DNA of 64,000 bases from Bacteroidota bacterium (GCA_021812985.1 JAKAMG010000014.1:12817-76816), one strand, 5' to 3'; positions 44,799-64,000 are shown, numbered from the stretch's first letter. Numbers and translations are program-made. Notes: generated from the sequence alone by a model not told the origin.

Positions 44799-44992
44799 TA
44801 GCGAAAATCAGAGCGGCTGGAGCACCTGGTTTGGCATTGTGTGTGTGGGTAAAATTCGATTAGGTGCTCAATTGGCTCGGAAGGTGGGTATGCAAATCGG
44901 AAACCCATCTCTCCGGCAATGCTCTCTTCATATAGATACGAAGGCTCGGCCAACGACACCAATTGTGGCCAAGCATTGGCGTAGAATCAAGA

Positions 44993-45970
44993 ATGGAGAA
45001 AGCAATGCAGCAAAGTTGCAGGGGGTCGAGTGCGCATATTTTTCTCTGTAACCTACTTGTCGTAATAGCGTGTATTCTGCCGGGATCAGCTACCGCCCAC
45101 GGCAAAGGGAAAGGACCTACCCGGGGAATTATTGAGTCAAACGGGGTCTATCTTTATTATGAATCTTATGGCAGAGGAGCACCGCTGATCATACTTCACG
45201 GTGGTCCCGGCCTTGACCACACATATCTCCTTCCTCAGATGCTGAGGCTTGCGCGTCACTATCGCCTGATTTTATATGATCAGCGGGGAAGCGGTCGCTC
45301 GACCGGCAATGTAGATTCAGCCTCCATGACTGTGAAGAACTTCGTCGACGATCTTGAAGGGCTAAGGCGGGGACTCCATCTTGGAAAAATAAACTTGCTT
45401 GGACACTCGTGGGGAGGGCTGCTCGCCATGGATTATGTGATCAAATACCCTGCGAAAGTTGGCAAAATCATTCTTGTAAGTTCCATAGGGGCGGCCTCCG
45501 ACTGGGTAGCGCCCTTCGTCCACAACAGGGAATCGAGGAGGACCTTCCAGGACAGTGTCGCCCTGGCAAAGCTCACGGGCTCGGAGGCATTCGGAAAGAG
45601 GGCTCCACCAGTCATGGAACAATTTGCCAGACTCTTTTTCAAGAGCTACTTCTACACTCAATCTCTCGCCGACAGCCTCACAATTACTTTTACTCCCGAA
45701 ACTGCCAAGAACTTCCTGTCAATCTTTGGATTGATGTCGCGGGAGATAACACACTACGATATAAGATCGAAGTTGCACGAACTGACGTGCCCCGTACTGA
45801 TCCTGCATGGCGAGGATGACCCTGTGCCGCTAGAGACTGCAAAGGAAGTCCAGTCCTCTATTCCTGGTTCGAAGCTTGTGGTGCTCGGGAAGTGTGGACA
45901 CTTCCCTTTCATTGAGTCGCCGAAAGACTTCTTTGATTATTGTGAGAAGTTCCTGGGTAACGACAGGTGA
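44993..45970 (+). CDS. secreted alpha/beta hydrolase, proline iminopeptidase-like
   Basis: ILHGGPGLDHTYL, LYDQRGSGRS, the nucleophile elbow GHSWGG and a C-terminal GHFPF. The N-terminus has a signal/lipoprotein-like LLVVIACILPGSATA. Start 44993 or 45005. Confidence 0.8.
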   Translation: MEKAMQQSCRGSSAHIFLCNLLVVIACILPGSATAHGKGKGPTRGIIESNGVYLYYESYGRGAPLIILHGGPGLDHTYLLPQMLRLARHYRLILYDQRGSGRSTGNVDSASMTVKNFVDDLEGLRRGLHLGKINLLGHSWGGLLAMDYVIKYPAKVGKIILVSSIGAASDWVAPFVHNRESRRTFQDSVALAKLTGSEAFGKRAPPVMEQFARLFFKSYFYTQSLADSLTITFTPETAKNFLSIFGLMSREITHYDIRSKLHELTCPVLILHGEDDPVPLETAKEVQSSIPGSKLVVLGKCGHFPFIESPKDFFDYCEKFLGNDR

Positions 45971-46001: not shown

Positions 46002-47918
46002 ATGAACCAAATCAGCAGGGCAGGGACCGGTCATGGGGAATTGAACTGGTGCATATCGACCAACCGCAGCTTCACGTGGACGGGCTTAATGTCTTGGCTG
46101 TTTCTTCTCGCTTTGGCTTTTGAATGCGCCGCCGGAATGATTCAGCCGGTACAGGCCGGCAACAGATCGTCAAAGAATATCCGGGACTCTGATGTAATAG
46201 TCCTGAAAGATCCCAAACGCGCCTATCCGCTTGGCCCCCACTTTTTCGTGTACGAGGATCGCAGTGACACCCTTACCGTCAATCAGATTGCCTCAGATGT
46301 CATGTCCAGGCGCTTCGTCCCCGCATCTAGTCCTGTTCCTAACATCAGCTCTACGAAGTCAGCCATCTGGGTCAGATTTACCGTAGAAGATTCTTCGAGC
46401 GAATACAGCTTCTGGCTTTTGGAGGTGGGCTATGCCGTACTGGACGAAGTGAGGCTTTACAGCGGTTCCCCCGCGGCAGGATTCACAGAGACCATTTCAC
46501 GCAGCTCTACACCGGTCCAGGAGCGGACTATCCGACATCGGTTGCCATATTTCCGGCTTCCACTGCAGAAGAATGTTCCTCAGCAATTCTATCTTCGGAT
46601 AACGGCGAGAACTTCGATCCCGCTTGCTCTCACTATCCGTCATGTGAGAGAGTTCATGGATTATGACCATAATGCTCAGATAGTCCTCGGTATCTTCTAT
46701 GGCGCTATGGTTATCATGATTCTGTACAACCTCTTCCTATTCTTCTCCGTCCGTGACAAGACATACCTCTACTACGTCCTGTATGTCAGTGGATACACAG
46801 TCTATCAACTTGCTCAGGACGGGCTTGTGAAGGAGTACATCCTCACGTACGGTGATGCCTTTTTCTATGTCGCCTACGGAGCCATCGGTTTCTTCTTTCT
46901 TTTCGGTGTTCAGTTCACGCGCACCTACCTTTCAACGAAACAAAGGACGAAGGTCCTCGACCGAGCACTTCTCCTTATTGAAGGGGGCGCATTGGTATCT
47001 TTATTGTTCTCACCGGTACTTGCCGGTGGTCCGCTGAATCTGATAGCAGGCATACTTGCTATAGGATATGGTATCACAGGTTTTTCTGCGGCCATCCTTT
47101 GCAGGAAACAAGGGTTCCGCCCCGCAAGTTATTACATGATAGCCCTTTCCGGCTTCTTCCTTGGTTTTGTCATCAGAGTCGCCCGGGTCGATGGGCTCGT
47201 GCCCATGAACTTCTTCACTCAGAACGCCTTTCAGATTGGAGTGCTGTGGGAAGTCTCATTGCTCTCTCTTGCACTGGGGAACAGAATTAACACCCTAAAA
47301 GGGGAGTATGATCACGATCGAGAAATGACGAGGCATCGTATTTCGAGCGACCTCCATGACGAGATAGGGAGCAACCTGAGCAGTATTGCAGTCGCAAGTC
47401 AAATGCTGAAGTCGGACTCTCAATTGAATAGCGAGCAGCGCGAGGAGTTGGATGGCATCACCTCAGCCGCACAGAGAACCGCGGAGGCGATGCGCGACAT
47501 CGTGTGGTTCATCAACCCGGAGCACGATACTCCTCGTGAAGTTGTCACGAAGATAAGGGAGACAGCGTCAAGTCTCCTCCGGGATGTCGATTTATCTTTC
47601 GAGTTGGATGAGAAGGCAATACAGGACATAAAGGATTTGCAGGTTCGTCGGAGCATCTTTTTGATTCTAAAGGAATCACTCAACAATATCGCTCGCCATG
47701 CCCGCGCGAGTTCCGTGACGGTATTCCTCGGGAGAGAAAAGAATGCTGTGTGTCTTTGTGTGAAGGACAATGGAGTCGGGTTCAGCGAGAAGTCGATCAA
47801 GCCAGGCAATGGGCTGAGAAACATTCGAAACAGAGCGCGGCAAATGGGAGCACGCTTGGAGATCAAGAGCGAACCAGGGATGGGCACGGAAATCTGCTTT
47901 TTCTACGGAATACCTTAA
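46002..47918 (+). CDS. 7TMR-DISM-type sensor histidine kinase (HisKA_3/NarX-LiaS class)
   Basis: Extracytoplasmic 7TMR-DISMED2-like region (IWVRFTVEDSS..FWLLEVGYAVLDEVRLY) and seven TM helices. H-box HDEIGSNLSSI, with HATPase N and G boxes (LNNIARHA, DNGVGF, GLRNI). The start may be ATG 46089. Confidence 0.85.
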   Translation: MNQISRAGTGHGELNWCISTNRSFTWTGLMSWLFLLALAFECAAGMIQPVQAGNRSSKNIRDSDVIVLKDPKRAYPLGPHFFVYEDRSDTLTVNQIASDVMSRRFVPASSPVPNISSTKSAIWVRFTVEDSSSEYSFWLLEVGYAVLDEVRLYSGSPAAGFTETISRSSTPVQERTIRHRLPYFRLPLQKNVPQQFYLRITARTSIPLALTIRHVREFMDYDHNAQIVLGIFYGAMVIMILYNLFLFFSVRDKTYLYYVLYVSGYTVYQLAQDGLVKEYILTYGDAFFYVAYGAIGFFFLFGVQFTRTYLSTKQRTKVLDRALLLIEGGALVSLLFSPVLAGGPLNLIAGILAIGYGITGFSAAILCRKQGFRPASYYMIALSGFFLGFVIRVARVDGLVPMNFFTQNAFQIGVLWEVSLLSLALGNRINTLKGEYDHDREMTRHRISSDLHDEIGSNLSSIAVASQMLKSDSQLNSEQREELDGITSAAQRTAEAMRDIVWFINPEHDTPREVVTKIRETASSLLRDVDLSFELDEKAIQDIKDLQVRRSIFLILKESLNNIARHARASSVTVFLGREKNAVCLCVKDNGVGFSEKSIKPGNGLRNIRNRARQMGARLEIKSEPGMGTEICFFYGIP

Positions 47919-47964
47919 ACGCGGTATTGAATTCGAGTCCTCAGAAGAGATATCTCCTGGAGTC

Positions 47965-48636
47965 ATGACTTCAAGAGCTAAGATGCGACGCGAAAGCCGG
48001 GCAACAGTCAGCGTCTGGCTGATTGAAGATAACGACTATTATCGGAGCACGATGGCGAAGCTAATCGACAGGAACCAAGGGATGAATTGTGTCCAGGCGT
48101 TTCGCTCCTGCGAGGAAGCAATTTCGGCCTTTCGCAACGAACCACCACCGGAGATCATCCTCCTCGATATCGGTCTGCCTGGAATGAGCGGCATCCAGGG
48201 AATTTCAAGATTCAAGGCCTGGAGTCCGTCCACTCACATCGTCATCCTCACTGTCCACGATGACGATGCCGACGTGTTTGACGCCATCTGTGCGGGCGCA
48301 TCTGGCTATCTCCTGAAAGATCTTTCTCCTGAAAGTGCGGTCGCGGCAATTAACGAAGTTCTTTCGGGCGGGGCCCCGATGAATCCGAAGATCGCCAGGC
48401 GTGTCCTCGAAATGTTCGCCAGGCAAGGGGCACCGAAGGGGGAATACGGCCTCAGTGACAGGGAAAAAGAAATCCTGAAGTTGCTAGTCGAAGGTTACAG
48501 TCAGAAGAAAATAGCAAATGATCTCTACCTTAGCGTACATACGGTGAATACTCATCTCAAGAACATATACAATAAACTTCAGGTCCACTCCCGCACCGGG
48601 GCGGTCTCGAAAGCGTTTAACGAGAAGCTCCTTTAG
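47965..48636 (+). CDS. NarL/LuxR-family response regulator
   Basis: REC domain (IILLDIGLPGMSG) plus a LuxR HTH (LSDREKEILKLLVEGYSQKKIANDLYLSVHTVNTHLKNIYNKL). Adjacent to the kinase. Confidence 0.9.
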   Translation: MTSRAKMRRESRATVSVWLIEDNDYYRSTMAKLIDRNQGMNCVQAFRSCEEAISAFRNEPPPEIILLDIGLPGMSGIQGISRFKAWSPSTHIVILTVHDDDADVFDAICAGASGYLLKDLSPESAVAAINEVLSGGAPMNPKIARRVLEMFARQGAPKGEYGLSDREKEILKLLVEGYSQKKIANDLYLSVHTVNTHLKNIYNKLQVHSRTGAVSKAFNEKLL

Positions 48637-48732
48637 TCCCTCGTCCATTCCGGCTATTTAGCCTTATCCCGACTGTCTCGATCCACTTCCTCGAAACTCG
48701 GCTATCCAAAATACCGTAAACAAGTGATTGCC
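48550..48732 (+). repeat. copy 1 of a duplicated segment (response-regulator 3' end + downstream leader with a conserved 25-nt box)
   Basis: Aligns by eye with 52674-52856. It ends in aaaataccgtaaacaagtgattgcc (48708-48732), which is identical in both copies. Confidence 0.6.
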
Positions 48733-48864
48733 CTAATAAAGGCCATGGTACAGATTCATCTGCGAAGAGTGGTCCCGCCATGACAAGAGTTTTATCATGA
48801 GTGCGTCATCGACCCTCATCGTATGTCATTCAGATTAGCTTCACAGTGAAGGGAGGCAATACAT

Positions 48865-51800
48865 ATGAGCAAATGTTCTCTACTAGTTGTCTTGACGGTG
48901 GCTCTTTGTTCGCAGTTGGGAGCAGGAAAGGCCACACCTTTGTCAGCGGGGGTAGCCCCTCACTTGGTCGCCGTTGGCCAGCAATCGGGGCCCCGAGAGC
49001 AGGTAGGGCCTCAAAGTCGCACCTCGAGCCTGGCCGTTCGCGGAATGGAGGTGTCGGGACTCGTTACATCGACACCTTACTCTGCTGTTCAGACAACGAC
49101 CCCTGATAACCTGCCATACGGAGGCGTCTGGTCCGCGAAAGAATTTCAAGGATCGGTATGGATTTGCGGAGACAGCAATCTGGTGGCGAAGGCGGATACT
49201 TCTAACCTCGGCTCGTGGACATTGATGAACAACGGCATCCCTGCCGACGGAATAATGTGTCTGGAGTTCGTTAGCTCATCAGTTATCTTCGCGGGCGGAT
49301 ACAGCGGGGCAATCTACAAAACAACCGACGGCGGGAATTCCTGGAATTCGGTCTACTTCAATGCGAGCGTTACGAACTTCATCGATGAGATCAAGTTTTT
49401 TGACGCGAACCATGGAATGGCTTGGGGGGATGGTCTTTCATCTACTAGCCCCCAAGCCTGCCTGGTCACCACCGACGGAGGAACAACCTGGACAAACAAT
49501 AATACTTTCATTACAGGCACTTCATATCCTGGAGATGTGGGTTTTGCCTCGCCGTCTTTCGTCACCATCGCGGGATATAACAAAGTCTCCGGGTCCACCT
49601 GCAGAGGCATCTGGCGGAGCACAGATGCGGGAGTAAGTTGGTCCTTTTCGACTGTCGGGACGGCGCCTAAGGACTCGGTTGCCATCACCGCGTCCGTCGC
49701 CTTTCGGGACCAATTTGTCGGAGTTGCATCTCGAAACGACTCCACGATCTGGTCCACCTCTGACGGGGGAATTACCTGGCAACAAGTCGGTTCGAAATTG
49801 CCGGTGTATTTTGCCTACGCAACCTTCGTAAATGGAACCAGCTTGGCGGTTTTGGGTGGAGCTAAAGCATCCATCGCGGAGGTAGACCTCAACTCGAACT
49901 CGATGACGATTTACCAGGACACAACCAAGAACATCGGTTTCTCCTTCATTGATTTTCCGGCCCCCACACGCGGTTACATGACGAATGGCGCCAAGCGCAC
50001 CTTTTACTCGATACGGAATCTTTCCGCGGGTAGTAATCCATCTGCATTCAACATAACATTCAATGTCAATATCGGAGTAATGAAGGCCGCAGGCATCTTC
50101 GATCCAAATAGAGACGAAGTTATCGTCAGGGGAGACTTCGAGCACTACGTTAATCCCTCGTATCAAGACTGGTTGGGGAACGAGTTCGCCATGACTCATA
50201 ATGCGGTTTACGATTCTGTATATGGTATTACCGTCCAACTGAACAACGTTCCTCCCGGGACTGAGCTTCAGTACAAATATGCAATCATAGACACGTCAAA
50301 CGGGCAGACTTCACTCAGCGATCAAACCGCATTTACTGGGCCATGGATTACGTGGGAGGATAATTTTGCGGGTCCCGGACCCAACGGAAACAGAGTTTAC
50401 ACATTGAATACATATCAATATCAGACCCCGCCTACTGTTTATTTCGACAACATGATCGGCGCGGTTCAGACTCATCAGGTTACATTTCAGGCCGATATGA
50501 CATCGCTCCTTTTAAGCGGATTCATTAAAGGTAGTGATACGATGTCCGTCAGAGGAAGCCTGCCGCCATTAAACTGGTGGAGCAACGTAGTTATGTCACC
50601 CAATGCAACTAATCCTGATATCTATCATGGCACAGTCACCGTTTCCATGCCGGCAGGTGCGATTTTGGAGTATGACTTCCATGCAAGTCCTGAAGGGCTT
50701 TTTGTAAATTCCGGTAACGACACGACGAAAGGTAACCATCTCCTCGCCTTCCCAAATCACGATACCACACTTGCGCCAATCGATCCCGCAATTTACTTGT
50801 TGCACCCCGCGCCGCGGCTTGACTGGACAATCGGCATTTCCGCGACTTCGAATGGGTTCACAGATTCCACATCTTACGCAGCTGTTGACACCAGTGCGAC
50901 GGATGGATATGACAACGCAATTGACCTTCCAAAGCCGCCGAAGCCGCCGAGCAATTACGTGTACGTCTATTTCCCTCATCCGGAGTGGGGAGCAATACTC
51001 GGACCCAACTTCATGACAGACGTCAAACACGACACAGACATGACTTCGATGGCGAAGGTATGGACGTTTGTTGTAGCCACAGACCACCTGAACAAACAAA
51101 TGACAGTTGCTCTTACCGGAAGCAATGGTATTCCTTCGTCCTATCCCATGATCCTGAGGGACATGAAGACAGGCATGGTGAGCGATATCCGCGTTACACC
51201 GAGCTACAGTTATAATGCGGGAACCGATTCCAGTCGCATGTTTCAGCTTATTGTGGGAACACCATATGTATCGCTCTCTCACACCTACAATGCTGGGTGG
51301 AACCTCATCGGACTCCCTGCCAAGACAAGTTTCCCCGCGGCATCTTCCATCTTCGGTTCTTCAGACGTTTACCTTTATGGATATTCGAATGCTGGAGGCT
51401 ACTTTTCTGCAGACACTCTTGGAATGGGAATGGGGTACTGGATCGGTGCAGCGAGTCCAACCAGCGCTGGAGCAAAAGGCATCGAAGCGTTGGGACCGGT
51501 GAGCCTTGCTCTGAATCCGGGTTTTAATTTAATATCCCTTCCATATCCTGATTCTGCATACTCCAAAGAGGAATTCTCTTTCACGAAGGGGAATGTTACG
51601 GTAGGACTCGACAGCGCGGCTTCGCTCGGATGGGTTTCTCCGTCATTGTTTTCGTATCTGCAGACGACTGGTGGCTATACTGCAGTGAATGAACTTTCGT
51701 TATGGAACGGATATTGGTTTGCCGCACTTGACAGTAACCTCACGCTTATTTTCAATCCTCCCGTGAATAATGTAATCCCGTCGGCAGCGAAGAAGAATGT

Positions 51801-52569
51801 TGTATCAAACGGGAAGACTGTAGCCAGCGTGTCGGACACAAACTGGACCGTCAGACTGACGCTACAGGCCAATGGCTCTATCGATCGACTCGGTGAATTC
51901 GGGGTAATGCCCGGCGCGAAGAGCGGATTCGACGCGCGATACGATCTTCCGCATCCACCGAATCCTCCGTCGTCCGGTTCCAATTATGCTTACCTCGCAT
52001 TCCCACATCCCGATTGGAAAAGCATAGTAGGTTCGAATTTCAGCTCTGATTTCGTGCCGGTCGGGAGCTCATACTCCTGGAAGATGATCGTGGGATGCAC
52101 CGGAGGCAACAGCATGGGTACACTGTCATGGGATTCCACCGCCGTTCCAAAAAATGTTTCGATTGAGCTCGTGGACCTTGGCAATGACGGACAGGCGCTT
52201 GATATGCACACATCAGGGAGTTACAGATTCTCGCTAAATGGTACAGACTCGATGCTTATAAGTGCAGTCTTGACGGGAGTGAGCGACCGCGCTTCCGTGC
52301 TACCGTCAAAGTTTGCTCTTTACCAAAACTACCCCAATCCGTTCAACCCTACCACGACAATCGCATACGATCTTCCGAAAGCCGCACATGTCACATTGAA
52401 AATTTATGACGTGTTGGGAGAGGAGGTAGCCACTCTCGTCGATGAACAAAAGGATGCGGGCTCTTATAAGGCATGGTTTGACGGCTCAAGGTTCGCCAGC
52501 GGAGTATACTTCTATCGGATAGAAGCCGGTTCGTTCATGGCATCAAAGAAGTTCGTGTTGATGAAATAA
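48865..52569 (+). CDS. large secreted T9SS cargo protein: BNR/Asp-box propeller + beta-sandwich modules + C-terminal sorting domain
   Basis: 1234 aa with signal peptide MSKCSLLVVLTVALCSQLGAG. Asp-box repeats (TTDGGNSWNS, TTDGGTTWTN, STDAGVSWSF, TSDGGITWQQ). The C-terminus NYPNPFNPTTTIAYDL...YDVLGEEV...SGVYFYRIEAG..KKFVLMK is a T9SS type-A CTD. Confidence 0.8.
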   Translation: MSKCSLLVVLTVALCSQLGAGKATPLSAGVAPHLVAVGQQSGPREQVGPQSRTSSLAVRGMEVSGLVTSTPYSAVQTTTPDNLPYGGVWSAKEFQGSVWICGDSNLVAKADTSNLGSWTLMNNGIPADGIMCLEFVSSSVIFAGGYSGAIYKTTDGGNSWNSVYFNASVTNFIDEIKFFDANHGMAWGDGLSSTSPQACLVTTDGGTTWTNNNTFITGTSYPGDVGFASPSFVTIAGYNKVSGSTCRGIWRSTDAGVSWSFSTVGTAPKDSVAITASVAFRDQFVGVASRNDSTIWSTSDGGITWQQVGSKLPVYFAYATFVNGTSLAVLGGAKASIAEVDLNSNSMTIYQDTTKNIGFSFIDFPAPTRGYMTNGAKRTFYSIRNLSAGSNPSAFNITFNVNIGVMKAAGIFDPNRDEVIVRGDFEHYVNPSYQDWLGNEFAMTHNAVYDSVYGITVQLNNVPPGTELQYKYAIIDTSNGQTSLSDQTAFTGPWITWEDNFAGPGPNGNRVYTLNTYQYQTPPTVYFDNMIGAVQTHQVTFQADMTSLLLSGFIKGSDTMSVRGSLPPLNWWSNVVMSPNATNPDIYHGTVTVSMPAGAILEYDFHASPEGLFVNSGNDTTKGNHLLAFPNHDTTLAPIDPAIYLLHPAPRLDWTIGISATSNGFTDSTSYAAVDTSATDGYDNAIDLPKPPKPPSNYVYVYFPHPEWGAILGPNFMTDVKHDTDMTSMAKVWTFVVATDHLNKQMTVALTGSNGIPSSYPMILRDMKTGMVSDIRVTPSYSYNAGTDSSRMFQLIVGTPYVSLSHTYNAGWNLIGLPAKTSFPAASSIFGSSDVYLYGYSNAGGYFSADTLGMGMGYWIGAASPTSAGAKGIEALGPVSLALNPGFNLISLPYPDSAYSKEEFSFTKGNVTVGLDSAASLGWVSPSLFSYLQTTGGYTAVNELSLWNGYWFAALDSNLTLIFNPPVNNVIPSAAKKNVVSNGKTVASVSDTNWTVRLTLQANGSIDRLGEFGVMPGAKSGFDARYDLPHPPNPPSSGSNYAYLAFPHPDWKSIVGSNFSSDFVPVGSSYSWKMIVGCTGGNSMGTLSWDSTAVPKNVSIELVDLGNDGQALDMHTSGSYRFSLNGTDSMLISAVLTGVSDRASVLPSKFALYQNYPNPFNPTTTIAYDLPKAAHVTLKIYDVLGEEVATLVDEQKDAGSYKAWFDGSRFASGVYFYRIEAGSFMASKKFVLMK

Positions 52570-52600
52570 CTCTCTCGTTTTGGCGTAGGCATACTGCCGC

Positions 52601-52643
52601 AGAGGCCTGAGCTTTTTCACGAGGCTCAGGCCTCTTTGCTTTT
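52601..52643 (+). terminator. rho-independent terminator
   Basis: 12-bp stem agaggcctgagc / gctcaggcctct followed by ttgctttt, 32 nt after the stop at 52569. Confidence 0.7.
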
Positions 52644-52673
52644 AGACTCCTTGCAAGATGCCAAACAATAGGC

Positions 52674-52856
52674 ACGCACCTGAAAAATATCTGCAACAAG
52701 CCCAAGGTCCGGACCGCGTCGGAGCAGTCTAGAAAGTCCTTAACGAAAAGCCCCTCTGGTTTCCCGTTGCCTTCGGCTAATCAGCCTTATCCCTACTTCG
52801 TCGATCTTCTTCGTCGACAGCCCGGCTGTCGAAAATACCGTAAACAAGTGATTGCC
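52674..52856 (+). repeat. copy 2 of the duplicated segment; includes a decayed LuxR-type HTH 3' relic
   Basis: 52674-52745 reads THLKNICNKPKVRTAS.., against THLKNIYNKLQVHSRTGAV.. in the intact regulator. After that, frame and stop are lost. The identical 25-nt box is at 52832-52856. Confidence 0.6.
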
Positions 52857-53011
52857 GGCGGCCGTGCAAGCAAATAGATTTGGTGAAATGAGAATCATCT
52901 GGTTTATCAGAAGGCTCAGATAAAGAGTCTTGTCAGGGGATCAGGTATGTCGCGGGGCCGTTCATACAATACAAACGTTCGCGTCACAAATTTGAAGGAA
53001 GGAGAAGTATT

Positions 53012-55168
53012 GTGAGGAATGTCAGACTGTTGCTGCTTTCGTGGTTTATTACGTTTATGCTGATCGCGGATGTGTCAGCGCAATGGGTGCAAACCAATGG
53101 TCCTTATACCGGTGACCCAGTCAATGTATTGGCGTGCAGTGGATCACGCCTATTAGCGGGCACGTTGGACGGCATATTCACTTCCACGGATAGTGGAGTG
53201 AGCTGGCATAGCACCCAAGTGAAAAACTATCCCATAGCCGCGATAACCAAGTATGGCGGCAGCACGTTTACAGGAGGGGGAAACGGTATCTTTCTTTCGA
53301 CGGACGACGGGGAAACGTGGTCGCCCATGAATTCTGGTTTGACAGGCATGGGTAAGAGCATCACGTCACTGGCGGTTTCTGGGTCAACTGTGATAGCCGG
53401 AACTTGGCAAGGAGTTTATGTCTCAACGGACGAAGGATCGACTTGGAATTCCGCAAATTCCGGTCTGCCTATCTCCAACGGGTGGACCTTTCGAGTCGTA
53501 TCCCTTGCTATCAGTGGGAGAAAGGTTTTCGCAGCTACTCAGAGCGGGCTCTTTGTATCTACTGATAACTGCTTGACATGGGCAGCTGCGGATTCCAGCT
53601 TAGCCAACGTATATGTTAACGCACTGGCTGCGACTGACACAATTGTTGTTGCTTGTACCACCACAGGTACTTTCGTATCAACTAACGGCGGGTCCCAATG
53701 GGCTCCTGCCGATTCCGGGATGGACTTGATGGGATGGGAAATTCATAGATTCGAGATAATTGGAACAAGTTTGCTGGCCGCCACGGACAAAGGGACATAC
53801 TTGTCAACGGACCGGGGAACAAGTTGGGCACCCACCAATTCTTCGGGCATTGCGACCTCTGACGTATGGGCCTTGGCAGGAAACGGCGCATCGCTCTTTG
53901 CAGGGACTGCTGTCGGAGAGATTTACCTTTCCACCGACAAAGGCATGACGTGGGGCAAAGCGGGAGATATTGTGATGCCAATACCGATGTCGAATCATGA
54001 ATTTACCTCTGTTGGGGACACTTTATTTGCGGGCGCTGGATACGCCGGAGTTTATTGCTCCAGCGACAAGGGCGCCAGCTGGCTGCAGGTCGACCACGAT
54101 CTGGCAACTTATCCGGTTACCACCCTTGCAGGTGATGGCAACGTGATACTTGCAGGCACTTACGGTGGTGGCATCTTTCTCTCGACAGATAATTCGGCAA
54201 CCTGGTCTCAGGCAAGTTCCGGATTACCTGCTCCGTATGCTTACGCTACCAAATGCTTTGCGCTTGCATCGGATGATACGGGAGGTAGACACGTATATGC
54301 CGCTACGGATAGTGGAATTTTCGTTTCGACGAATATCGGGCAAAATTGGAACTGCATACTAGGGCAAGATCCTTCGATGGGAGGTCCTTTATCAATCGCA
54401 GCCTATGGTGGCGGTGTCTTCGTGGGATATCTTGGGGGGATAATGCGTTCCACGGACTTCGGCTCAAGTTGGAGTCGATCTCTCGCCTTGAACGGAGAGA
54501 GCGTCAGGGACCTTGTCACTGACGGAGGGAATCTCTATGCGGGTGTCTCAAGTGGCGCCGATGTTTATGGAGTTTATATTTCGACAGATAACGGGACAAC
54601 CTGGTCTTCCGGCAGGTCAGGACTCCCTCCTTGGTCGGATGTCAATGCTGTTGCTGTAAGCGGCGCCAGCTTGTTCGCAGGAACATTTGCCGGAGTCTTC
54701 CTTTCAACAGACGGAGGGCACAGCTGGGTTCCGGTAAGTTCAGGCTTGGCCGACACTTCAATTAGTACCCTGGCGGTAAATGATGGATATCTTTATGCCG
54801 GAACCTACTATTACAACGGGGTCTGGAAGAGACCGATATCAGAAATGGTTTCCGCTATAGGACAACACCTGAATAATACGCCTTTGAAATTTGACATGGA
54901 GCAAAACTATCCTAATCCCTTCAACCCCACGACAACAATAAAGTTCGGGCTCCCAAAGCAATCCCAGGTCAGCCTCGTCATCTATGACATACTTGGCAGG
55001 GAAGTGAAAGAACTTGTTAACGACAAACTCCAGGCTGGTTACTACCACTTCACGTGGGACGCCACGCGGTTTGCGAGCGGAGTATACTTCTATCGGATCG
55101 AGGCACAGTCACTAAGCGGAGATAAGAAGAGCTTCGTCGAGGTGAAGAAGTTACTCCTCCTCAAATGA
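53012..55168 (+). CDS. secreted T9SS cargo protein with ~13 BNR/Asp-box repeats (double-propeller, sortilin/GH74-like architecture)
   Basis: 718 aa, GTG start after the RBS gaaggaagga. Repeats include STDSGVSWHS, STDDGETWSP, STDEGSTWNS and STDGGHSWVP. The C-terminal NYPNPFNPTTTIKFGL...SGVYFYRIEAQ is a T9SS CTD. Confidence 0.8.
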   Translation: MRNVRLLLLSWFITFMLIADVSAQWVQTNGPYTGDPVNVLACSGSRLLAGTLDGIFTSTDSGVSWHSTQVKNYPIAAITKYGGSTFTGGGNGIFLSTDDGETWSPMNSGLTGMGKSITSLAVSGSTVIAGTWQGVYVSTDEGSTWNSANSGLPISNGWTFRVVSLAISGRKVFAATQSGLFVSTDNCLTWAAADSSLANVYVNALAATDTIVVACTTTGTFVSTNGGSQWAPADSGMDLMGWEIHRFEIIGTSLLAATDKGTYLSTDRGTSWAPTNSSGIATSDVWALAGNGASLFAGTAVGEIYLSTDKGMTWGKAGDIVMPIPMSNHEFTSVGDTLFAGAGYAGVYCSSDKGASWLQVDHDLATYPVTTLAGDGNVILAGTYGGGIFLSTDNSATWSQASSGLPAPYAYATKCFALASDDTGGRHVYAATDSGIFVSTNIGQNWNCILGQDPSMGGPLSIAAYGGGVFVGYLGGIMRSTDFGSSWSRSLALNGESVRDLVTDGGNLYAGVSSGADVYGVYISTDNGTTWSSGRSGLPPWSDVNAVAVSGASLFAGTFAGVFLSTDGGHSWVPVSSGLADTSISTLAVNDGYLYAGTYYYNGVWKRPISEMVSAIGQHLNNTPLKFDMEQNYPNPFNPTTTIKFGLPKQSQVSLVIYDILGREVKELVNDKLQAGYYHFTWDATRFASGVYFYRIEAQSLSGDKKSFVEVKKLLLLK

Positions 55169-55218
55169 GTTCAGAGGTTAAAGAGCTTCTGCTCTTGGCC
55201 CAACGGTATTAGACCATC
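54902..55218 (+). repeat. copy A of a ~317-bp near-identical repeat (T9SS CTD coding region + ~50 bp downstream)
   Basis: By eye it matches 63684-64000 with roughly a dozen substitutions and no indels. It crosses the stop codon into non-coding sequence. Confidence 0.85.
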
Positions 55219-55754: not shown

Positions 55755-58700
55755 GTGGTTAAGGTGTACAGGAGTTCCCGTTCATCATACGACATTTCCA
55801 TGCGTGTAGATGAAATCAACGGACGTGTTAAAAGGGTCCATAATGTCACTTTCCCCCTCCGTTATTTTCTACTCCTTACAGTCACTTTTCAATCACAAAC
55901 CTTCTCTCAGAATAGGAATTTTAGGTTCACGCGCATCGGTGTCGAACATGGTCTTCCAACCTCTACCGTTTACAGTGTATTTCAGGACAGCAAGGGCTTT
56001 ATGTGGTTCGGAACTACAGGTGGTCTGTGCAGGTATGACGGTTACACCTTCAAGATCTACGACGAGACTCCCGTGTATGCTGGGTCGATGTTTCTTGAGG
56101 ACAAGCGCGGCTCCCTTTGGTTCTTCCCCGGAGGTGGTGAAGTGCACCGGCTTGATCTGTTGTCCAACAATGTAACGCGTTATTCCATCGGGCTTGGACA
56201 CAGGGCGTATGTGATTTCCGAAGATGACCTGGGCGATATTTGGGTCGGCACAATGGGAGACGGGCTTGGCAGATATTCACCCTCTGCGGATTCCTTTCTT
56301 GTTTACAAGAATGATTCTGCAATTGCCGGAAGCGTCTCAAGCGACACTATCTATGCGATCCATCAGGACTCACAGGGGAATCTCTGGATTGGGACCGGAC
56401 GCGGGTTGGAAAAGTTTCAAAGGGCCTTGGAAAAGTTTGTTCATTGCGAACCGGTCGGTACGGACCCCGTGAGAGCAATAGCTGAGGATAAGGACGGATC
56501 AATATGGTTGGCGACATCTGACGGACTCTGCAGATTAGACATTGCCACAGGGATTTTCGTGCGTTACCGGAACGGTGATCCCACGCTCAACCGCATCTAT
56601 TCACTCTACATCACCCCCAAGGGTAAAATACTAGTTGCGGTGGGGGACGGGCGTGTGGAGCAATTCGACAAACCATCGGGCAAATTCAAATCGGTAAAAA
56701 GGTTGTCCGGTAAGCCGGCAAGGGTAGCTGCAACAATGGTCGATTGTTTTCTTGAGGACCGGGAAGAAAGGTTCTGGATGTTGACATCCCGAGGCTTGGG
56801 TTTATTGGATCAAAGAGACGGAATCATACACATGCTTGAACCCGATGAAAATGATCCGCACACTATGCCGGAAGGGAATGCGACTTGTATGATTGAAGAC
56901 TTGGCCGGCAACCTCTGGTTTGGAACCCAGACTGGGGGAATCTGCTTCCTTGATCATGTCGCTAACGATTTCCAGTACGTCTCAAGTAAGCCATCTGATA
57001 GAATCAGCCTGAGTCACGCTTCTGTCAGCGCAATCATCGAGGACAAGTCGGGTGTCGTTTGGGTCGGTTCGCTGCACGGTCTCGACCGGCTCGATTTATC
57101 CGCCGGAACTAAGACTCACTATGATGAGAACGCGGCTGGTGCGGCCGGACTGAAGAACGGTAGGGTCCTCAAGTTGCTGCAGGATTCTTCGGGTCTCATC
57201 TGGATCGGGACTTCCGGAGGACTATGCATGCTTGATCCGGCCACAGGAAGATTCTCCTATTACCAGCAGCATGCCGAACGCGTCGGTCTGTCCGCCGCAC
57301 AGGAAATTGTCTCCATCTGCATCGACCGGAATGGGGCAATGTGGCTGGGAGGCGGTATAGGGTCGGGGTTGCTAATGAGATTCGACAGGGAGAGTCGCAA
57401 ATTCGACGATTACTACTTCTGTGGCCTTCCTGGTTATTCGGGACAGCATTCCCACCCGGCTGCAAATCTCTTGGAGGACAGGAACGGCGTCTTATGGCTT
57501 ACTGCCGGAGCATTGGAAGCCTTTGACAGGAATACGGGACGTGCACGTTATTATCGCCACGAACCAGAAGACTCCACCACTCTGTCGAGCGGCAACCCGG
57601 CGTCGATCTGTGAAGACAGAACTGGGAAGCTGTGGTTCGGACTATCGACTGGTCTTGATTGCTATGAAAGTAAGACTGACAAATTCAGGCACATTAAGTT
57701 CACAGATGGCCTCATGCGTCCGATGATATACGAATTATTAGAGGACAATTGCGTGTTGGGGGACGGCACTCGACGGGTAGGTATGTTCTGGATGGCCACG
57801 GTCAGAGGAATTTCAAGATTCAATCCGGTCACGGGTGTGACCGTTGACTATGGCCCCGCAGAAGGAGTGCCAATCGCACCATCTGAATTCATGCACTCAA
57901 GTTATAAGAGCCGTGACGGTCACCTCTACTTTGGCGGCGCCAATGGATTCGTCCGCTTTAACCCTGACAGCGTAAAGGACAATTCATTTATCCCACCAAT
58001 CGTCATCACCTCTTTCCATTTATTCAATGTGGAGGCTCGGCTGGACAGTGACGTAAGCATAAAGAGGCAGATTGACCTCTCCTTTGAACAGGACGTTCTA
58101 ACCTTCGAGTTTGCCGCGTTGAATTATTCTCATCCGGAAGAAAACCGTTACTCATACAGGATGGAGGGATTCGACAGGGACTGGGTTTCCTGTGGAACGC
58201 GACATTCGGCGATGTACACAAGTCTCCCGCCGGGAAGTTACGTGTTTCGGGTTAAAGGGACCAACAATAATGGCATATGGAATACTAAGGGTGCGTCGGT
58301 TGCTCTGGTCATCCGGCCTCCCTGGTGGCGAACAGACGCTGCGTATCTCGGATATGCTCTTATTCTTATCGGAGCATGTTGGCTGGGATGGCAAATCCAG
58401 TTGAGGCGAATCAAAATCAGACACGCATTTGAAATGACGCGCTTTGAAGCCGAGAAGCTTCATGAAATCGACGAACTGAAATCTCGTTTCTTTGCAAACA
58501 TCTCACACGAATTCAGAACACCTCTCACTCTGATACTCGGTCCAGTCAAAGAGATCGCTGGCAGGATAGCGGACCGCCAGATGAGAGAAGAGCTCTGGAT
58601 GGTTCACAGAAACACAACCAGGCTCCTGAACCTGGTCAACCAGTTGCTCGACATAGCGAAGCTTGAATCGGGGAACATGAGACTTCGGGCGGCGCAGACA

Positions 58701-60032
58701 AATATAGTCCAGGTATTGAAAGCCTGGACGCTTTCATTTTCCTCCCAAGCCGATAGAAAACGGATCACGCTCGTTTTCAACCCGCAAACAGAAAGTTTAA
58801 TCGCCTACGTCGACATGGAGAAGCTGGAGAAAATTGTGATGAATATACTTTCCAACGCATTCAAATTCACTCCTGAAGATGGGCGGGTCGAGGTCGGCGT
58901 CAAGAACTCCGGAGGTTGGGCGGAGATAAGCGTTTGCGATACGGGCATCGGAATTCCCAAAGAGAAGCTTTCTAAAGTATTTGACCGCTTCTATCAGGTG
59001 AATGGAGGACGCACGAGAGAAGGCGAGGGTACCGGTATAGGGCTCTCCATTACTAAGGAACTTGTCGAGCTCCATAAGGGGAAAGTATCGGTAGAGAGCG
59101 TCGAGGGGAGAGGGACCACATTTAAAGTAAGTATTCCATTGGGTAAGGACCATCTAACGTCGGAAGAAGTGTGCGACCTATCGCCGGGCAGCGATGAAAG
59201 GCCGATGGCGGTTTGGGAACAGGTTCCAATCGCGGACAGACGTCCGAAGAACCACGAGCTGGGTGTTGCCGGGGACGCCAATAAGACGGCCGTGCTGGTG
59301 GTTGAAGATAATCCAGACGTCAGACGCTACATCAAGGTAAACCTTGATGGGGAATGCGAAGTGATGGAAGCAGTGAACGGAGAGGATGGACTGAACAAAT
59401 CACGTGAGCATTTGCCCGATATCGTTATAAGCGATGTGATGATGCCGAAGATGGATGGCTTTCAACTTTGCAGGTTTTTGAAGACAGATGAAAGGACAAG
59501 CCACATTCCGGTAATACTTCTTACAGCAAAGGCTACCACCCGGGACAAGATTGACGGCTTCGAGACTGGAGCGGATGAGTATATAATGAAGCCGTTCGAT
59601 CCGGAGGAGCTGAAGTCGAGGATAAACAATCTGATCGAGCAGAGGAAAAGGTTGCACGATCACTTCAGGAGAAAAGGGATTGTGGAACTGACCGGTCTCA
59701 AAGTAACGTCGGTCGACGAGAAATTCCTCCGAAAGATATCTGGCCTGATCGAAGACAATATTTCGAACGCTTCATTTGGTGTCGAATCTCTTGCGGAAAT
59801 GTCGGCTGTAAGCCGGTCGGTGCTTCACCGGAAAGTGCTCTCGCTTACCGGCGACCCGCCAGTGGAACTTATCAGGAAAGTGCGGCTGAAGAGGGCCGCC
59901 GAGCTGATAGACAGGAAGGCGGGCAACATGTCTGAGATAGCTCTGGAAGTTGGCTTTACCAATCCCGCATATTTCTCGGAGTGTTTCAAGAAGCAGTTCG
60001 GAGTATCTCCATCTCAATACAAACGCTCCTAG
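55755..60032 (+). CDS. hybrid two-component system regulator (beta-propeller/Y_Y_Y sensor + HisKA + HATPase + REC + AraC HTH)
   Basis: 1425 aa with repeated ..G.LW.GT..GL propeller blades and a Y_Y_Y module (YSYRMEGFDRDW...YVFRVKG). H-box SHEFRTPL, then an HATPase, a REC domain (DVMMPKMDG) and a C-terminal AraC HTH (..GFTNPAYFSECFKKQFG.SP). The start is GTG 55755 or ATG 55800. Confidence 0.9.
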   Translation: MVKVYRSSRSSYDISMRVDEINGRVKRVHNVTFPLRYFLLLTVTFQSQTFSQNRNFRFTRIGVEHGLPTSTVYSVFQDSKGFMWFGTTGGLCRYDGYTFKIYDETPVYAGSMFLEDKRGSLWFFPGGGEVHRLDLLSNNVTRYSIGLGHRAYVISEDDLGDIWVGTMGDGLGRYSPSADSFLVYKNDSAIAGSVSSDTIYAIHQDSQGNLWIGTGRGLEKFQRALEKFVHCEPVGTDPVRAIAEDKDGSIWLATSDGLCRLDIATGIFVRYRNGDPTLNRIYSLYITPKGKILVAVGDGRVEQFDKPSGKFKSVKRLSGKPARVAATMVDCFLEDREERFWMLTSRGLGLLDQRDGIIHMLEPDENDPHTMPEGNATCMIEDLAGNLWFGTQTGGICFLDHVANDFQYVSSKPSDRISLSHASVSAIIEDKSGVVWVGSLHGLDRLDLSAGTKTHYDENAAGAAGLKNGRVLKLLQDSSGLIWIGTSGGLCMLDPATGRFSYYQQHAERVGLSAAQEIVSICIDRNGAMWLGGGIGSGLLMRFDRESRKFDDYYFCGLPGYSGQHSHPAANLLEDRNGVLWLTAGALEAFDRNTGRARYYRHEPEDSTTLSSGNPASICEDRTGKLWFGLSTGLDCYESKTDKFRHIKFTDGLMRPMIYELLEDNCVLGDGTRRVGMFWMATVRGISRFNPVTGVTVDYGPAEGVPIAPSEFMHSSYKSRDGHLYFGGANGFVRFNPDSVKDNSFIPPIVITSFHLFNVEARLDSDVSIKRQIDLSFEQDVLTFEFAALNYSHPEENRYSYRMEGFDRDWVSCGTRHSAMYTSLPPGSYVFRVKGTNNNGIWNTKGASVALVIRPPWWRTDAAYLGYALILIGACWLGWQIQLRRIKIRHAFEMTRFEAEKLHEIDELKSRFFANISHEFRTPLTLILGPVKEIAGRIADRQMREELWMVHRNTTRLLNLVNQLLDIAKLESGNMRLRAAQTNIVQVLKAWTLSFSSQADRKRITLVFNPQTESLIAYVDMEKLEKIVMNILSNAFKFTPEDGRVEVGVKNSGGWAEISVCDTGIGIPKEKLSKVFDRFYQVNGGRTREGEGTGIGLSITKELVELHKGKVSVESVEGRGTTFKVSIPLGKDHLTSEEVCDLSPGSDERPMAVWEQVPIADRRPKNHELGVAGDANKTAVLVVEDNPDVRRYIKVNLDGECEVMEAVNGEDGLNKSREHLPDIVISDVMMPKMDGFQLCRFLKTDERTSHIPVILLTAKATTRDKIDGFETGADEYIMKPFDPEELKSRINNLIEQRKRLHDHFRRKGIVELTGLKVTSVDEKFLRKISGLIEDNISNASFGVESLAEMSAVSRSVLHRKVLSLTGDPPVELIRKVRLKRAAELIDRKAGNMSEIALEVGFTNPAYFSECFKKQFGVSPSQYKRS

Positions 60033-60549
60033 TCTGAACAAAGACCGCTCAGTTACCATCGTCATTTAGTCGAATCGCTGAGTCACATGAATATTTAGAG
60101 CCCACTTAGAATCTCATTTCTCTGCCACTCAGTGTTTCTGCGTCATCGTTGCGCCCTTTGACGTTTGGCCGAAATACCCCAAAGAGCCCGTCATTCCGGT
60201 TAATCCTCGCCATGTCACACGTGGATGCTACAAATCCGTAAATTTCCGACACAATTCTGGTAGAATCGCCCTTCCCGCCGCTGTTACTTGTACAGTGTCC
60301 GCGGCAAGAAGGAAGGATTCAAATTCGGGATGTTAGGGGGTTTCTCTTGGCTGCGGCGGGAATTCAACTTCAGGAAGCTGCTATGAAGGTGAAGGAATGA
60401 AACAGCTATTAGGGAATCGCGGGGAAATTCCGTATTGGCCGCTGTCTGTTGATGGCAATAGGCGATGTGGCGCCAGTTTGGGATCGGAACTCCCCACCGC
60501 ATTTGTGAATCGCTTCGGCGAAACCGATAGGCGGACTGATGGCCGCGGA

Positions 60550-62007
60550 ATGCGCGTCGCCTTCAGGCTTTCGTGCTTGCTCGTCACAGGACTGATTCTG
60601 CTGGCGAATGCGGCCGACGGGGTGTCGCGTGATCTGAGAGACAAGAACAACTGCGCGGATTACATAGTAATTACGATCTCCCCTTACCGTCAGGTCGCCG
60701 AGAAGTTGGCGACATTTAGACATGAGAAGAATGGCTTCCAGACAATGGTTGTCCTCCTGGACTCCATCATGGAAGAGTTCGCCGGCTATGCATCTCCAGA
60801 CACCGCAATAAGGGACTTCGTGCAATATGCGCTCAACAACTGGTCGGATCCAAAGCCGCAATACTTTGTCCTTGCCGGGAACATCAACTCGGTCCCGTCA
60901 CACCAGGAACGTGAGGGTATAAGCACCGACACTTTTGGCCGATCTGTAAATCCTCCGGATTCGGTTCTGATGATTGACCAGTGGTTTGTCCAGTATTTCG
61001 ACAGCAGTGGAACTATGAGCGTCCGAGCAAATATCGGGCGGTTTCCCGCCTGGGATTCCACAAGCCTGTCCGTAATGATCGACAAAACCATTGGATATGA
61101 GACCGGTCCCATCGGTTCGTGGTGTCAGCGGGCCGTCTCTCTTTCCGATTACAGTGAAACCGATGGCCACGTGTTCGAGACAGATATCCGGCGGTTAAAC
61201 GGGTGCCTCGCACCGCTGTGGTCCGACACCACTTCTGTAGATATCCGGGACGATTCACCGTTCCACCTGAGCTCCACTGAGTTCATCCAGATGTGGGATC
61301 GCGGTGCCGCGGTAGTGGCATATGCCGGCCACGCCCGCGACTCAGTATTTTCCACCTCCTGTTATTTCACTACAAGGACCGTAGATTCCCTTTCAAACGG
61401 CGATCGGCTTCCTTTCTGCATGTTCTATGGATGCAATCTGAATTTCCACACGCCTCAGTCAATATCGATCCCGACGCGTCTGCTTGAACATACCAATGGA
61501 GGCGCAGTGGCCGTCATCGCTTCCGAGGGATTGATGTACGGCGGGGTGGCGGCCCTTTTTTATGAGACGCTGATTAAGTACTTGACCGAGAATCCTCTCG
61601 AGCCCTTGGGAAAAGCGTACAGCTTTGCGATGTCTAAGTGGGGATGGCCGATATGCCGCCGGCTTGCTTTCCTCGGCGACCCGGCGCTGAGTGTCAAGCG
61701 TTCGCTGAGCTCAATATCACATCCCGAACATGCTGCCAATCTGGATGCTCTTTCACTTTCTCAGAACTACCCCAACCCCTTCAACCCGACCACCACCATT
61801 CGCTATGAGCTGTCAGCCAACAGTGTCGTGAGCCTGAAAGTCTACGATGTGCTTGGCAGGGAAGTGAAGACGCTTGTGAATGAATTTAAGCCGGCAGGAA
61901 CTTATGCGGTCGAGTTTGACGCGAGCGGCCTGGCGAGCGGAGTGTATTTCTATAGAATCAAAGCTGGTGTTTTTACTTCGATGAAGAAGATGTTGCTGGT
62001 CAAGTGA
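60550..62007 (+). CDS. secreted peptidase C25 (gingipain-like) family protein with T9SS CTD
   Basis: Signal peptide from ATG 60550 (MRVAFRLSCLLVTGLILLANA). C25-style N-terminus DYIVITISPYRQVAEKLATFRHEKNGF...YFVLAGNINSVP. Candidate catalytic His (YAGHA) and Cys (FYGCN). The CTD is NYPNPFNPTTTIRYEL...SGVYFYRIKAG. Confidence 0.75.
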   Translation: MRVAFRLSCLLVTGLILLANAADGVSRDLRDKNNCADYIVITISPYRQVAEKLATFRHEKNGFQTMVVLLDSIMEEFAGYASPDTAIRDFVQYALNNWSDPKPQYFVLAGNINSVPSHQEREGISTDTFGRSVNPPDSVLMIDQWFVQYFDSSGTMSVRANIGRFPAWDSTSLSVMIDKTIGYETGPIGSWCQRAVSLSDYSETDGHVFETDIRRLNGCLAPLWSDTTSVDIRDDSPFHLSSTEFIQMWDRGAAVVAYAGHARDSVFSTSCYFTTRTVDSLSNGDRLPFCMFYGCNLNFHTPQSISIPTRLLEHTNGGAVAVIASEGLMYGGVAALFYETLIKYLTENPLEPLGKAYSFAMSKWGWPICRRLAFLGDPALSVKRSLSSISHPEHAANLDALSLSQNYPNPFNPTTTIRYELSANSVVSLKVYDVLGREVKTLVNEFKPAGTYAVEFDASGLASGVYFYRIKAGVFTSMKKMLLVK

Positions 62008-63950: not shown

Positions 63951-64000
63951 GTCCAGAGGTTAAAGAGCTTCTGCTCTTGGCCCAACGGTATTAGACCATC
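63684..64000 (+). repeat. copy B of the ~317-bp near-identical repeat (runs to the window edge)
   Basis: See 54902-55218. The similarity is still intact at the last base of the window, so the true repeat length is unknown. Confidence 0.85.

Follow-up and report, generated by a model that had tools for sequence, protein, structure and literature searches.

The 64,000-nucleotide stretch of a Bacteroidota bacterium analysed here (GCA_021812985.1, JAKAMG010000014.1:12817-76816; hereafter the window) carries a two-component system, composed of a sensor histidine kinase and a NarL/FixJ-family response regulator, followed by two genes (cargo A and cargo B) whose products bear a type IX secretion system (T9SS) sorting domain. 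A segment that includes the 3' end of the regulator gene, its leader and a box of 25 nt (AAAATACCGTAAACAAGTGATTGCC) is present upstream of both cargo genes (copies A and B, respectively), and this box is the subject of the present account. The sequence of the window was also recovered in GCA_027400595.1 and in a Logan assembly (99.995-100% identity), and these further copies are so nearly identical that they offer no polymorphism to exploit. The genes and segments on which the argument rests are:

46002..47918, + strand: sensor histidine kinase with 7TMR-DISMED2, 7TMR-DISM_7TM, HisKA_3 and HATPase_c domains (Pfam); orthologues share 33-70% identity and the same gene order.
47965..48636, + strand: NarL/FixJ-family response regulator of 223 aa, with a receiver (REC) and a GerE/LuxR helix-turn-helix (HTH) domain (Pfam).
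48540..48732, + strand: copy A, comprising the functional regulator 3' end (to 48636), the leader (48637-48707) and the box (48708-48732).
48865..52569, + strand: cargo A, a BNR/sortilin-like repeat protein of 1234 aa with a T9SS sorting domain at its C-terminus.
52601..52635, + strand: intrinsic terminator of cargo A (15-bp stem and T-run), abutting copy B.
52662..52856, + strand: copy B, comprising a pseudogene fragment of the regulator 3' end (~52662-52759), the leader (52760-52831) and the box (52832-52856).
53012..55168, + strand: cargo B, a BNR-repeat protein of 718 aa that resembles F510_1955-family glycosylhydrolases and has a T9SS sorting domain.

The assignment of the two signalling proteins relies on Pfam matches to HisKA_3 (5.4e-10) and HATPase_c in the kinase, and to Response_reg (2.3e-21) and GerE (3.1e-19) in the regulator, for which the best solved relatives in the PDB were VraR (5hev) and NarL (1a04). 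The regulator scored below every NCBIfam equivalog cut-off (125.7 for the NarL model, which has a cut-off of 250). The kinase has its closest named relative (70% identity) in a metagenome-assembled genome of Candidatus Kryptonia, and a protein search of genome contigs with the kinase found no locus. The 223-aa regulator had no exact counterpart, as its start codon is placed differently in other annotations.

The original prediction, made from the sequence of the window, had proposed that the regulator 3' end and the leader were duplicated, and formal alignment (MAFFT and Smith-Waterman) places the similarity of the two copies far above chance. The comparison of 48500-48732 with 52620-52856 yielded a Smith-Waterman score of 121, against 17.6 +/- 2.3 for dinucleotide shuffles (z=45), and the resemblance was significant outside the 25-mer too, both for the coding part by itself (z=7.7) and for the leader without the box (z=13.7). 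As had been noted, the 25 nt are identical in the two copies: exact matches were found at 48708 and 52832 and nowhere else in the window, where a search allowing up to 3 mismatches retrieved no third match (shuffles yield 0). Given the background identity of 72%, an identical run of 25 bases has a probability of ~0.013 anywhere in the segment and of ~3e-4 at its 3' end. The similarity breaks off precisely at the 3' end of the box, and the following 170-190 nt show none (z=0.2). The distances to the start codons agree with those given before (132 intervening nt in A and 155 in B). A weaker third resemblance, which had been suspected at 60192-60250 upstream of the C25 gene, is attributable to chance (alignment z=1.1; best score there of a position weight matrix, PWM, -13 bits, vs 25-28 bits for the real sites).

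The decay of the HTH-coding part in the second copy was likewise confirmed. The remnant in copy B begins directly after the terminator and reads IGTHLKNICNKPKVRTAS, followed by a 1-nt deletion and by a TCG-to-TAG stop; it retains 65% nucleotide identity to the functional 3' end and still spells THLKNI.NK..V. Being homologous to a functional gene, disrupted in frame and devoid of a start, it qualifies as a pseudogene fragment. The two copies agree better in the leader (~75%) than in the decayed coding part (~65%), a hint of another constrained element upstream of the box. Both leaders contain a small palindrome (48652-48663 and 52776-52787) with a changed centre (GGCTATTTAGCC in A and GGCTAATCAGCC in B), after which comes an identical AGCCTTATCCC.

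A pattern search revealed that the 25-mer is the imperfect version (AATACC-GTAAACAA-GTGATT) of a dyad that occurs as a perfect palindrome, AATACC-TTAAACGC-GGTATT, at the end of the kinase gene (site S1). The latter is the sole match without mismatches to AATACC-N8-GGTATT in the window. The three sites are:

47909..47928, + strand: S1, overlapping the kinase stop codon; its right arm is intergenic and lies 36 nt before the regulator ATG.
48711..48730, + strand: S2-A, core ATACCGTAAACAAGTGATTG of the form ATACC-N8/10-GATTG, an imperfect dyad within the 25-mer at 48708-48732 (PWM 26.2 bits).
52835..52854, + strand: S2-B, core ATACCGTAAACAAGTGATTG (PWM 28.2 bits).

A PWM scan of the window recovered exactly 3 sites (28.2, 26.2 and 25.3 bits; next best 2.7), of which S2-B had been left out of the training set, although its 20-nt core is identical to that of S2-A, which had been included. 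Upstream of the hybrid sensor, 570-aa cargo, hydrolase and kinase genes (see below for the first three) the same matrix detected no site. The left arm of S1 (47909-47918) is encoded by the last kinase codons, ATA CCT TAA (Ile-Pro-stop), and across the window and two other lineages (L003 and L009) the ATA is fixed and the third position of the proline codon varies (ATA CCN stop); the arm thus appears to be a case of overlapping protein and operator code.

Orthologous loci were reached via kinase homologues in eight further lineages, to which we added a metagenome fragment (L015) that lacks its kinase. The identity of each kinase to that of the window was as follows:

L003: 70%
L009: 61%
L007: 55%
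L010 and L011: 39%
L012: 37%
L016: 34%
L017: 33%

In all nine other lineages a site of the form ATACC-N10-[GT]AT[TG]G, usually with a symmetric GGTAT arm, was found just upstream of the regulator gene (S1), and a second one (S2), whose right arm reads G[CGT]GATTG, in the interval that separates the regulator gene from its downstream neighbour. S1 occupies the same place as in the window in L003, L009, L007, L010, L011, L012, L016 and L017 (in the last of these it reads TACCACG-AA-TGTGGTA), and the S2 sites retain the left arm together with 3 of the 5 right-arm positions. Matches to the pattern ATACCNNNANNNNGNNATNG were confined, in every kinase-regulator locus fetched, to the regions upstream of the regulator gene and of the first downstream gene(s), all of them on the gene strand, whereas we estimate that ~0.1 matches would be expected by chance in that much sequence. 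L010 has three cargo-side sites, placed upstream of three different genes, so that the multiplication of the box is not unique to the window genome. In nearly all lineages the symmetry of S1 contrasts with the asymmetry of S2, which suggests that the two differ in a graded affinity for their binder. The recognition helix of the regulator (HTVNTH[LI]KNIY) does not vary among 7 orthologues whose overall identity is 56-76%, which matches the invariance of the half-site.

A scan of metagenomes with the degenerate S2 consensus retrieved two contigs, L015, in which the architecture is the same as at the window locus, and L014, a 2.9-kb contig with no two-component system, where an exact S2-type box (ATACCACGAATGCGCGATTG, 2274-2293) lies upstream of a gene for a PstS-like phosphate-binding protein; this box is either a remote member of the regulon or a fortuitous match. 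In the distant lineages the sites end a conserved cassette of ~110 nt (L007 11960-12320; L010 9950-10072, 10940-11061 and 12715-12837; L011 9900-10045; L009 3960-4061), which is absent from the window species. It holds an 11-bp hairpin, GGATCCCGATT...AATCGGGATTC, in which compensatory changes are seen (2 pairs, 5 cells; 1/500 shuffles), succeeded by CACTCAC...CGTTCG...TTTTGGAA. Between the kinase and regulator genes of L007 there are three tandem partial cassettes, and the ATACC core is found in the last one only.

When 18 sites were aligned by their core, positions 1-5 (ATACC), 9 (A), 14 (G), 17-18 (AT) and 20 (G) were invariant, positions 21-40 carried zero information, and positions 41-46 read T13 A15 n a10 T13 T18 (counts out of 18). 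With core positions 18-20 being TTG, the alignment resolves into TTGyg-N17-TAnaTT, a sigma-70-type arrangement in which the -35 forms the end of the box; both hexamers and the 17-nt length of the spacer are conserved across the orthologous promoters. The promoters predicted in the window are:

47927..47955, + strand: promoter S1, -35 TTGAAT (47927-47932), N17, -10 ATATCT (47950-47955); predicted start near 47962.
48728..48756, + strand: promoter A, -35 TTGCCC (48728-48733), N17, -10 CAGATT (48751-48756); predicted start ~48763, with a 5' untranslated region of ~100 nt.
52852..52880, + strand: promoter B, -35 TTGCCG (52852-52857), N17, -10 TAGATT (52875-52880); predicted start ~52887, with a 5' untranslated region of ~125 nt.

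The spacer and -10 of promoter B are not homologous to those of promoter A. The terminator that separates cargo A from copy B implies that cargo B needs a promoter of its own. A generic sigma-70 scan called neither promoter A nor B, because both are weak, which fits a dependence on an activator. The centre of the dyad lies 31.5 bp upstream of the -10, which would be near -43.5 on the assumption of a start 7 nt beyond the -10. A start near 47962 would leave the regulator mRNA almost leaderless, or with a leader of 21 nt if the ATG at 47983 is used. Other promoter grammars were considered: the Bacteroidota -33 TTTG / -7 TAnnTTTG reading suits promoter B (TAGATTTG) and L009 (TACTTTTG) but not most sites, which have TAnATTCA or similar, and it draws no clear support from the frequency of TAnnTTTG, which is only weakly enriched in the intergenic regions of the window (0.78 vs 0.34 per kb, 6 matches). 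Sigma-54 (GG-N10-GC) and extracytoplasmic function (ECF) sigma factors (GGAAC-N16-CGTC) were rejected, as both spacing and sequence mismatch in the aligned sites, judged by eye.

The output domains of NarL bind inverted heptamers 2 bp apart ('7-2-7', e.g. TACCCCTAAAGGGGTA) as dimers, with sites at -40..-49 (napF) and -38..-47 (yeaR) (PMC4549865), and one 7-2-7 site 32 bp upstream of the -10 suffices for NarL-dependent activation (PMC9314961). Our locus resembles the Escherichia coli NarL/NarP promoters (napF, yeaR and ogt derivatives) in that a regulator with REC and GerE/LuxR HTH domains is paired with a HisKA_3 kinase, in the TACC-N8-GGTA geometry of the inverted repeat, and in having just one site, with its centre ~32 bp upstream of the -10 (near -43.5), over a weak -35. 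It departs from them in the heptamer (TACC[AGT][CT][AG], not TACYYMT), in the sensor (a 7TMR-DISM kinase, not NarX/NarQ), in the targets (T9SS-secreted proteins, not respiratory genes) and in the promoter-proximal half-site, which the targets systematically have in a degenerate form (G[CGT]GATT) and the autoregulatory site in a perfect one; moreover, the host is an uncultivated Kryptonia-like bacterium of the Fibrobacteres-Chlorobi-Bacteroidetes (FCB) group, and the binding of the regulator is here a prediction. As the inner bases of the heptamer differ, the sites do not belong to a NarL regulon, and the regulator, judged by its sequence, is not a NarL orthologue either; what the two have in common is the type of mechanism. 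A literature search combining 7TMR-DISM and NarL found no paper.

Two further systems offer parallels. In class II-type activation by LuxR, the lux box is a 20-bp dyad centred about -42.5, over the -35. The window sites are likewise 20-bp dyads suited to a GerE/LuxR-type HTH dimer and placed at the -35 of a weak promoter, but LuxR is activated by a ligand and is not a phospho-accepting response regulator, and the boxes lack sequence similarity. Positive autoregulation is a feature of two-component systems such as PhoPQ and, among the NarL-family systems, VraSR/LiaRS. The present system would share with them the placement of the best (palindromic) site before the regulator's own gene and of weaker ones at the targets; in contrast to these, only the regulator gene stands behind the site, the kinase gene lying upstream and holding the left half-site in its last codons.

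Taken on these comparative grounds, we consider it likely that the 25-mer is the operator plus the -35 of a regulator-dependent, sigma-70-type promoter, that the regulator activates its own gene and the two T9SS cargo genes, and that copy B is a duplicate of this promoter which carries along a pseudogene fragment of the regulator. The 7TMR-DISM kinase would phosphorylate the NarL-type regulator, a dimer of which would bind the dyad and recruit RNA polymerase to otherwise weak promoters. The perfect palindrome S1 would confer positive autoregulation on the regulator gene, the asymmetric S2-A and S2-B would drive the two separately transcribed cargo genes, and selection would have kept the box of copy B intact as the adjoining regulator fragment decayed. 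The original prediction had already taken the preserved box for a selected promoter or operator, possibly the target of the regulator. Selection is upheld by the occurrence of the motif at orthologous positions in nine lineages, by its dyad symmetry and by the fixed 17-nt spacer to the -10; as to what binds the box, the strongest candidate is the NarL-type regulator encoded alongside.

Several observations weigh against this interpretation. The half-site (TACCRYR-like) has only TAC(C) in common with the NarL heptamer TACYYMT, the -10 hexamers of A (CAGATT) and S1 (ATATCT) are poor, and the L014 box precedes a PstS-like gene on 2.9 kb of sequence that shows no two-component system. The 18 aligned sites are not phylogenetically independent. 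Site counts for the source genome cover the 64-kb window, beyond which a larger set of sites unrelated to the regulator is possible. Finally, the identity of A and B at core positions that vary between lineages could reflect gene conversion, and a dyad overlapping the -35 could also repress, a distinction between activator and repressor that sequence alone does not make.

The last of these points leads to the alternative that best survives, namely that the same regulator acts on the same site as a repressor, occluding the -35 and switching the genes off when the kinase is active. Apart from the overlap of the dyad with the -35, it finds a precedent in the repression exerted by NarL-family proteins at some promoters (e.g. 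frdA; PMC4549865). Nevertheless, we deem it unlikely: the -35 and -10 elements (TTGCCC/CAGATT and TTGCCG/TAGATT), weak enough to fail a generic sigma-70 scan, are typical of activator-dependent promoters, the dyad centre near -43.5 fits the NarL activation sites, and repressor sites are found more often over the -10 or the start site.

The box might instead be read by another factor (an alternative sigma factor or another transcription factor), with the regulator and cargo genes being mere members of its regulon. The TTTTGGAA stretch that is conserved before the core in several lineages loosely recalls an ECF -35, and the L014 box lies away from any visible two-component system. However, neither the window species nor L003 has TTTTGGAA, the -10 is of the housekeeping type (TAnaTT) and not of the ECF CGTC type, the motif tracks the kinase-regulator pair in 10 lineages regardless of the cargo, and its dyad symmetry suits a dimeric HTH protein. 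The hybrid AraC-type sensor encoded downstream (55755-60032) is not syntenic in the other lineages. We regard the involvement of another factor as improbable.

It was also considered whether the identity of the two 25-mers has no function and merely marks a recent duplication or gene-conversion tract, a dispersed repeat or a mobile element. Copies A and B indeed agree even where the core differs from one lineage to another, and a 96%-identical stretch of 317 nt in two other cargo genes (described below) shows that duplication or conversion took place recently in this cluster. Yet the motif is kept at orthologous positions across lineages whose flanks have fully diverged, by which this explanation is largely refuted. 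The 25-mer is no common dispersed repeat (two copies in 64 kb), a test for dispersed or miniature inverted-repeat transposable elements disclosed no terminal inverted repeats and no extra copies in the window (the motif occurs 3 times), and the exact 20-mer core had no match in 596 Gb of genomes nor in the metagenome collection of the Joint Genome Institute. A lack of function thus appears very remote. That the conserved block acts in cis as RNA (leader, riboswitch or attenuator) is hardly credible, for although no terminator is predicted between the regulator stop and box A, so that a read-through transcript of the regulator would include the box, Rfam gave 0 matches at E<=1, the folds compared with shuffles (z=+0.44 in A; z=-1.9 in B, from a B-specific pairing) share no common structure, the S2 arms are unable to pair and show no compensatory change, and the conserved -10 at a fixed spacing downstream favours a promoter at the DNA level.

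With the regulator-dependent promoter as the preferred reading, the origin of its second copy may be narrowed down. The cargo A and B proteins have in common only the T9SS tail (47%) and the BNR repeats (~26%), and the homology of the upstream regions is limited to ~195 nt ending at the -35; hence, the earlier suggestion that the second cargo gene arose by segmental duplication does not hold, and the loss of a second two-component system once attached to cargo B (the other possibility raised before) becomes, by virtue of this limited homology, less parsimonious than either a copying of the promoter segment or the arrival of the 1234-aa gene by a single crossover in it. Over its full length, cargo B is homologous (34%) to a 732-aa gene located downstream of the regulator in L003. 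The leaders of A and B are nearer to each other than either is to that of L003, and the regulator remnant of copy B is equidistant (60-66%) from all orthologues, which for the remnant is consistent with neutral decay. The comparison did not single out a foreign lineage as the source of copy B, the remnant being equidistant from the orthologues and the leader closest to copy A.

The event seems to have involved only ~195 nt (the regulator 3' end and the leader, plus the box as far as the -35), and would have been either a local duplication before the 718-aa gene or a single-crossover insertion, within the segment, of a unit made of spacer A, the 1234-aa gene and the terminator; the latter would explain both boundaries in one step. 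As in other cases of regulon expansion through duplicated promoter segments, the ~195-nt copy combines a dead 3' gene fragment with a putatively functional operator before another gene. It differs from the usual case in that the 3' joint lies exactly at the -35, which makes promoter B a hybrid of a copied operator and -35 with a non-homologous spacer, -10 and untranslated region.

A more far-reaching possibility, which we hold to be doubtful, is that the regulator-dependent promoter is a portable cassette, copied repeatedly before new genes for secreted proteins. It would accommodate the copying from A to B, with its regulator fossil and its junction right at the -35, the tandem partial cassettes of L007, and the three cargo-promoter copies that accompany S1 in L010 (where S1, S2 and S3 have ~110 nt of upstream sequence in common and S4, at 11838, does not). 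If this were true, the regulon would grow by recurrent and possibly dedicated recombination, e.g. the capture of circular gene cassettes via a single crossover in the promoter segment, and not by the birth of sites through point mutation.

The genes that surround the system in the window are:

44963-45970: alpha/beta hydrolase.
55755-60032: hybrid sensor-regulator, Reg_prop/Y_Y_Y, AraC type.
60397-62007 and 62238-63950: two further T9SS cargo genes.

In the window, L003, L007 and L016 (kinase identity 34-70%), the alpha/beta-hydrolase gene stands directly before that of the kinase, and may represent a conserved partner of the sensor within the same operon. The hybrid protein (1425 aa) unites Reg_prop beta-propellers, Y_Y_Y, HisKA, HATPase, REC and an AraC HTH, and is of the type that controls polysaccharide-utilisation loci in Bacteroidota. 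Its gene sits between the box-bearing genes and the two additional T9SS cargo genes, which have no box, and likely adds a second and independent layer of regulation to the cluster. The 317-nt stretch mentioned above (96% identity) is shared by the 718-aa and 570-aa cargo genes at their 3' ends (54902-55218 vs 63684-64000); it spans the T9SS sorting domain and runs at least 50 nt beyond both stop codons, to the end of the window. The two genes are otherwise unrelated, a pattern that speaks for a recent duplication or gene conversion of the secretion tail together with the downstream region.

On comparative grounds, the locus is thus most likely to hold an autoregulated set of promoters under the control of a NarL-family protein, one of whose target promoters was made by segmental duplication. 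For a hitherto uncharacterised family of 7TMR-DISM kinases and NarL-type regulators this provides a testable regulatory code, comprising an operator consensus, a promoter architecture and both autoregulatory and target sites. The family is conserved in uncultivated Kryptonia-like and other FCB-group bacteria, beside T9SS-secreted proteins that include glycoside-hydrolase-like ones. The pseudogene fragment, as a datable fossil, documents how a gene may be recruited into a regulon by way of a copied operator and -35 segment, which we see as an ordinary case of regulon growth by promoter duplication, in keeping with current understanding.

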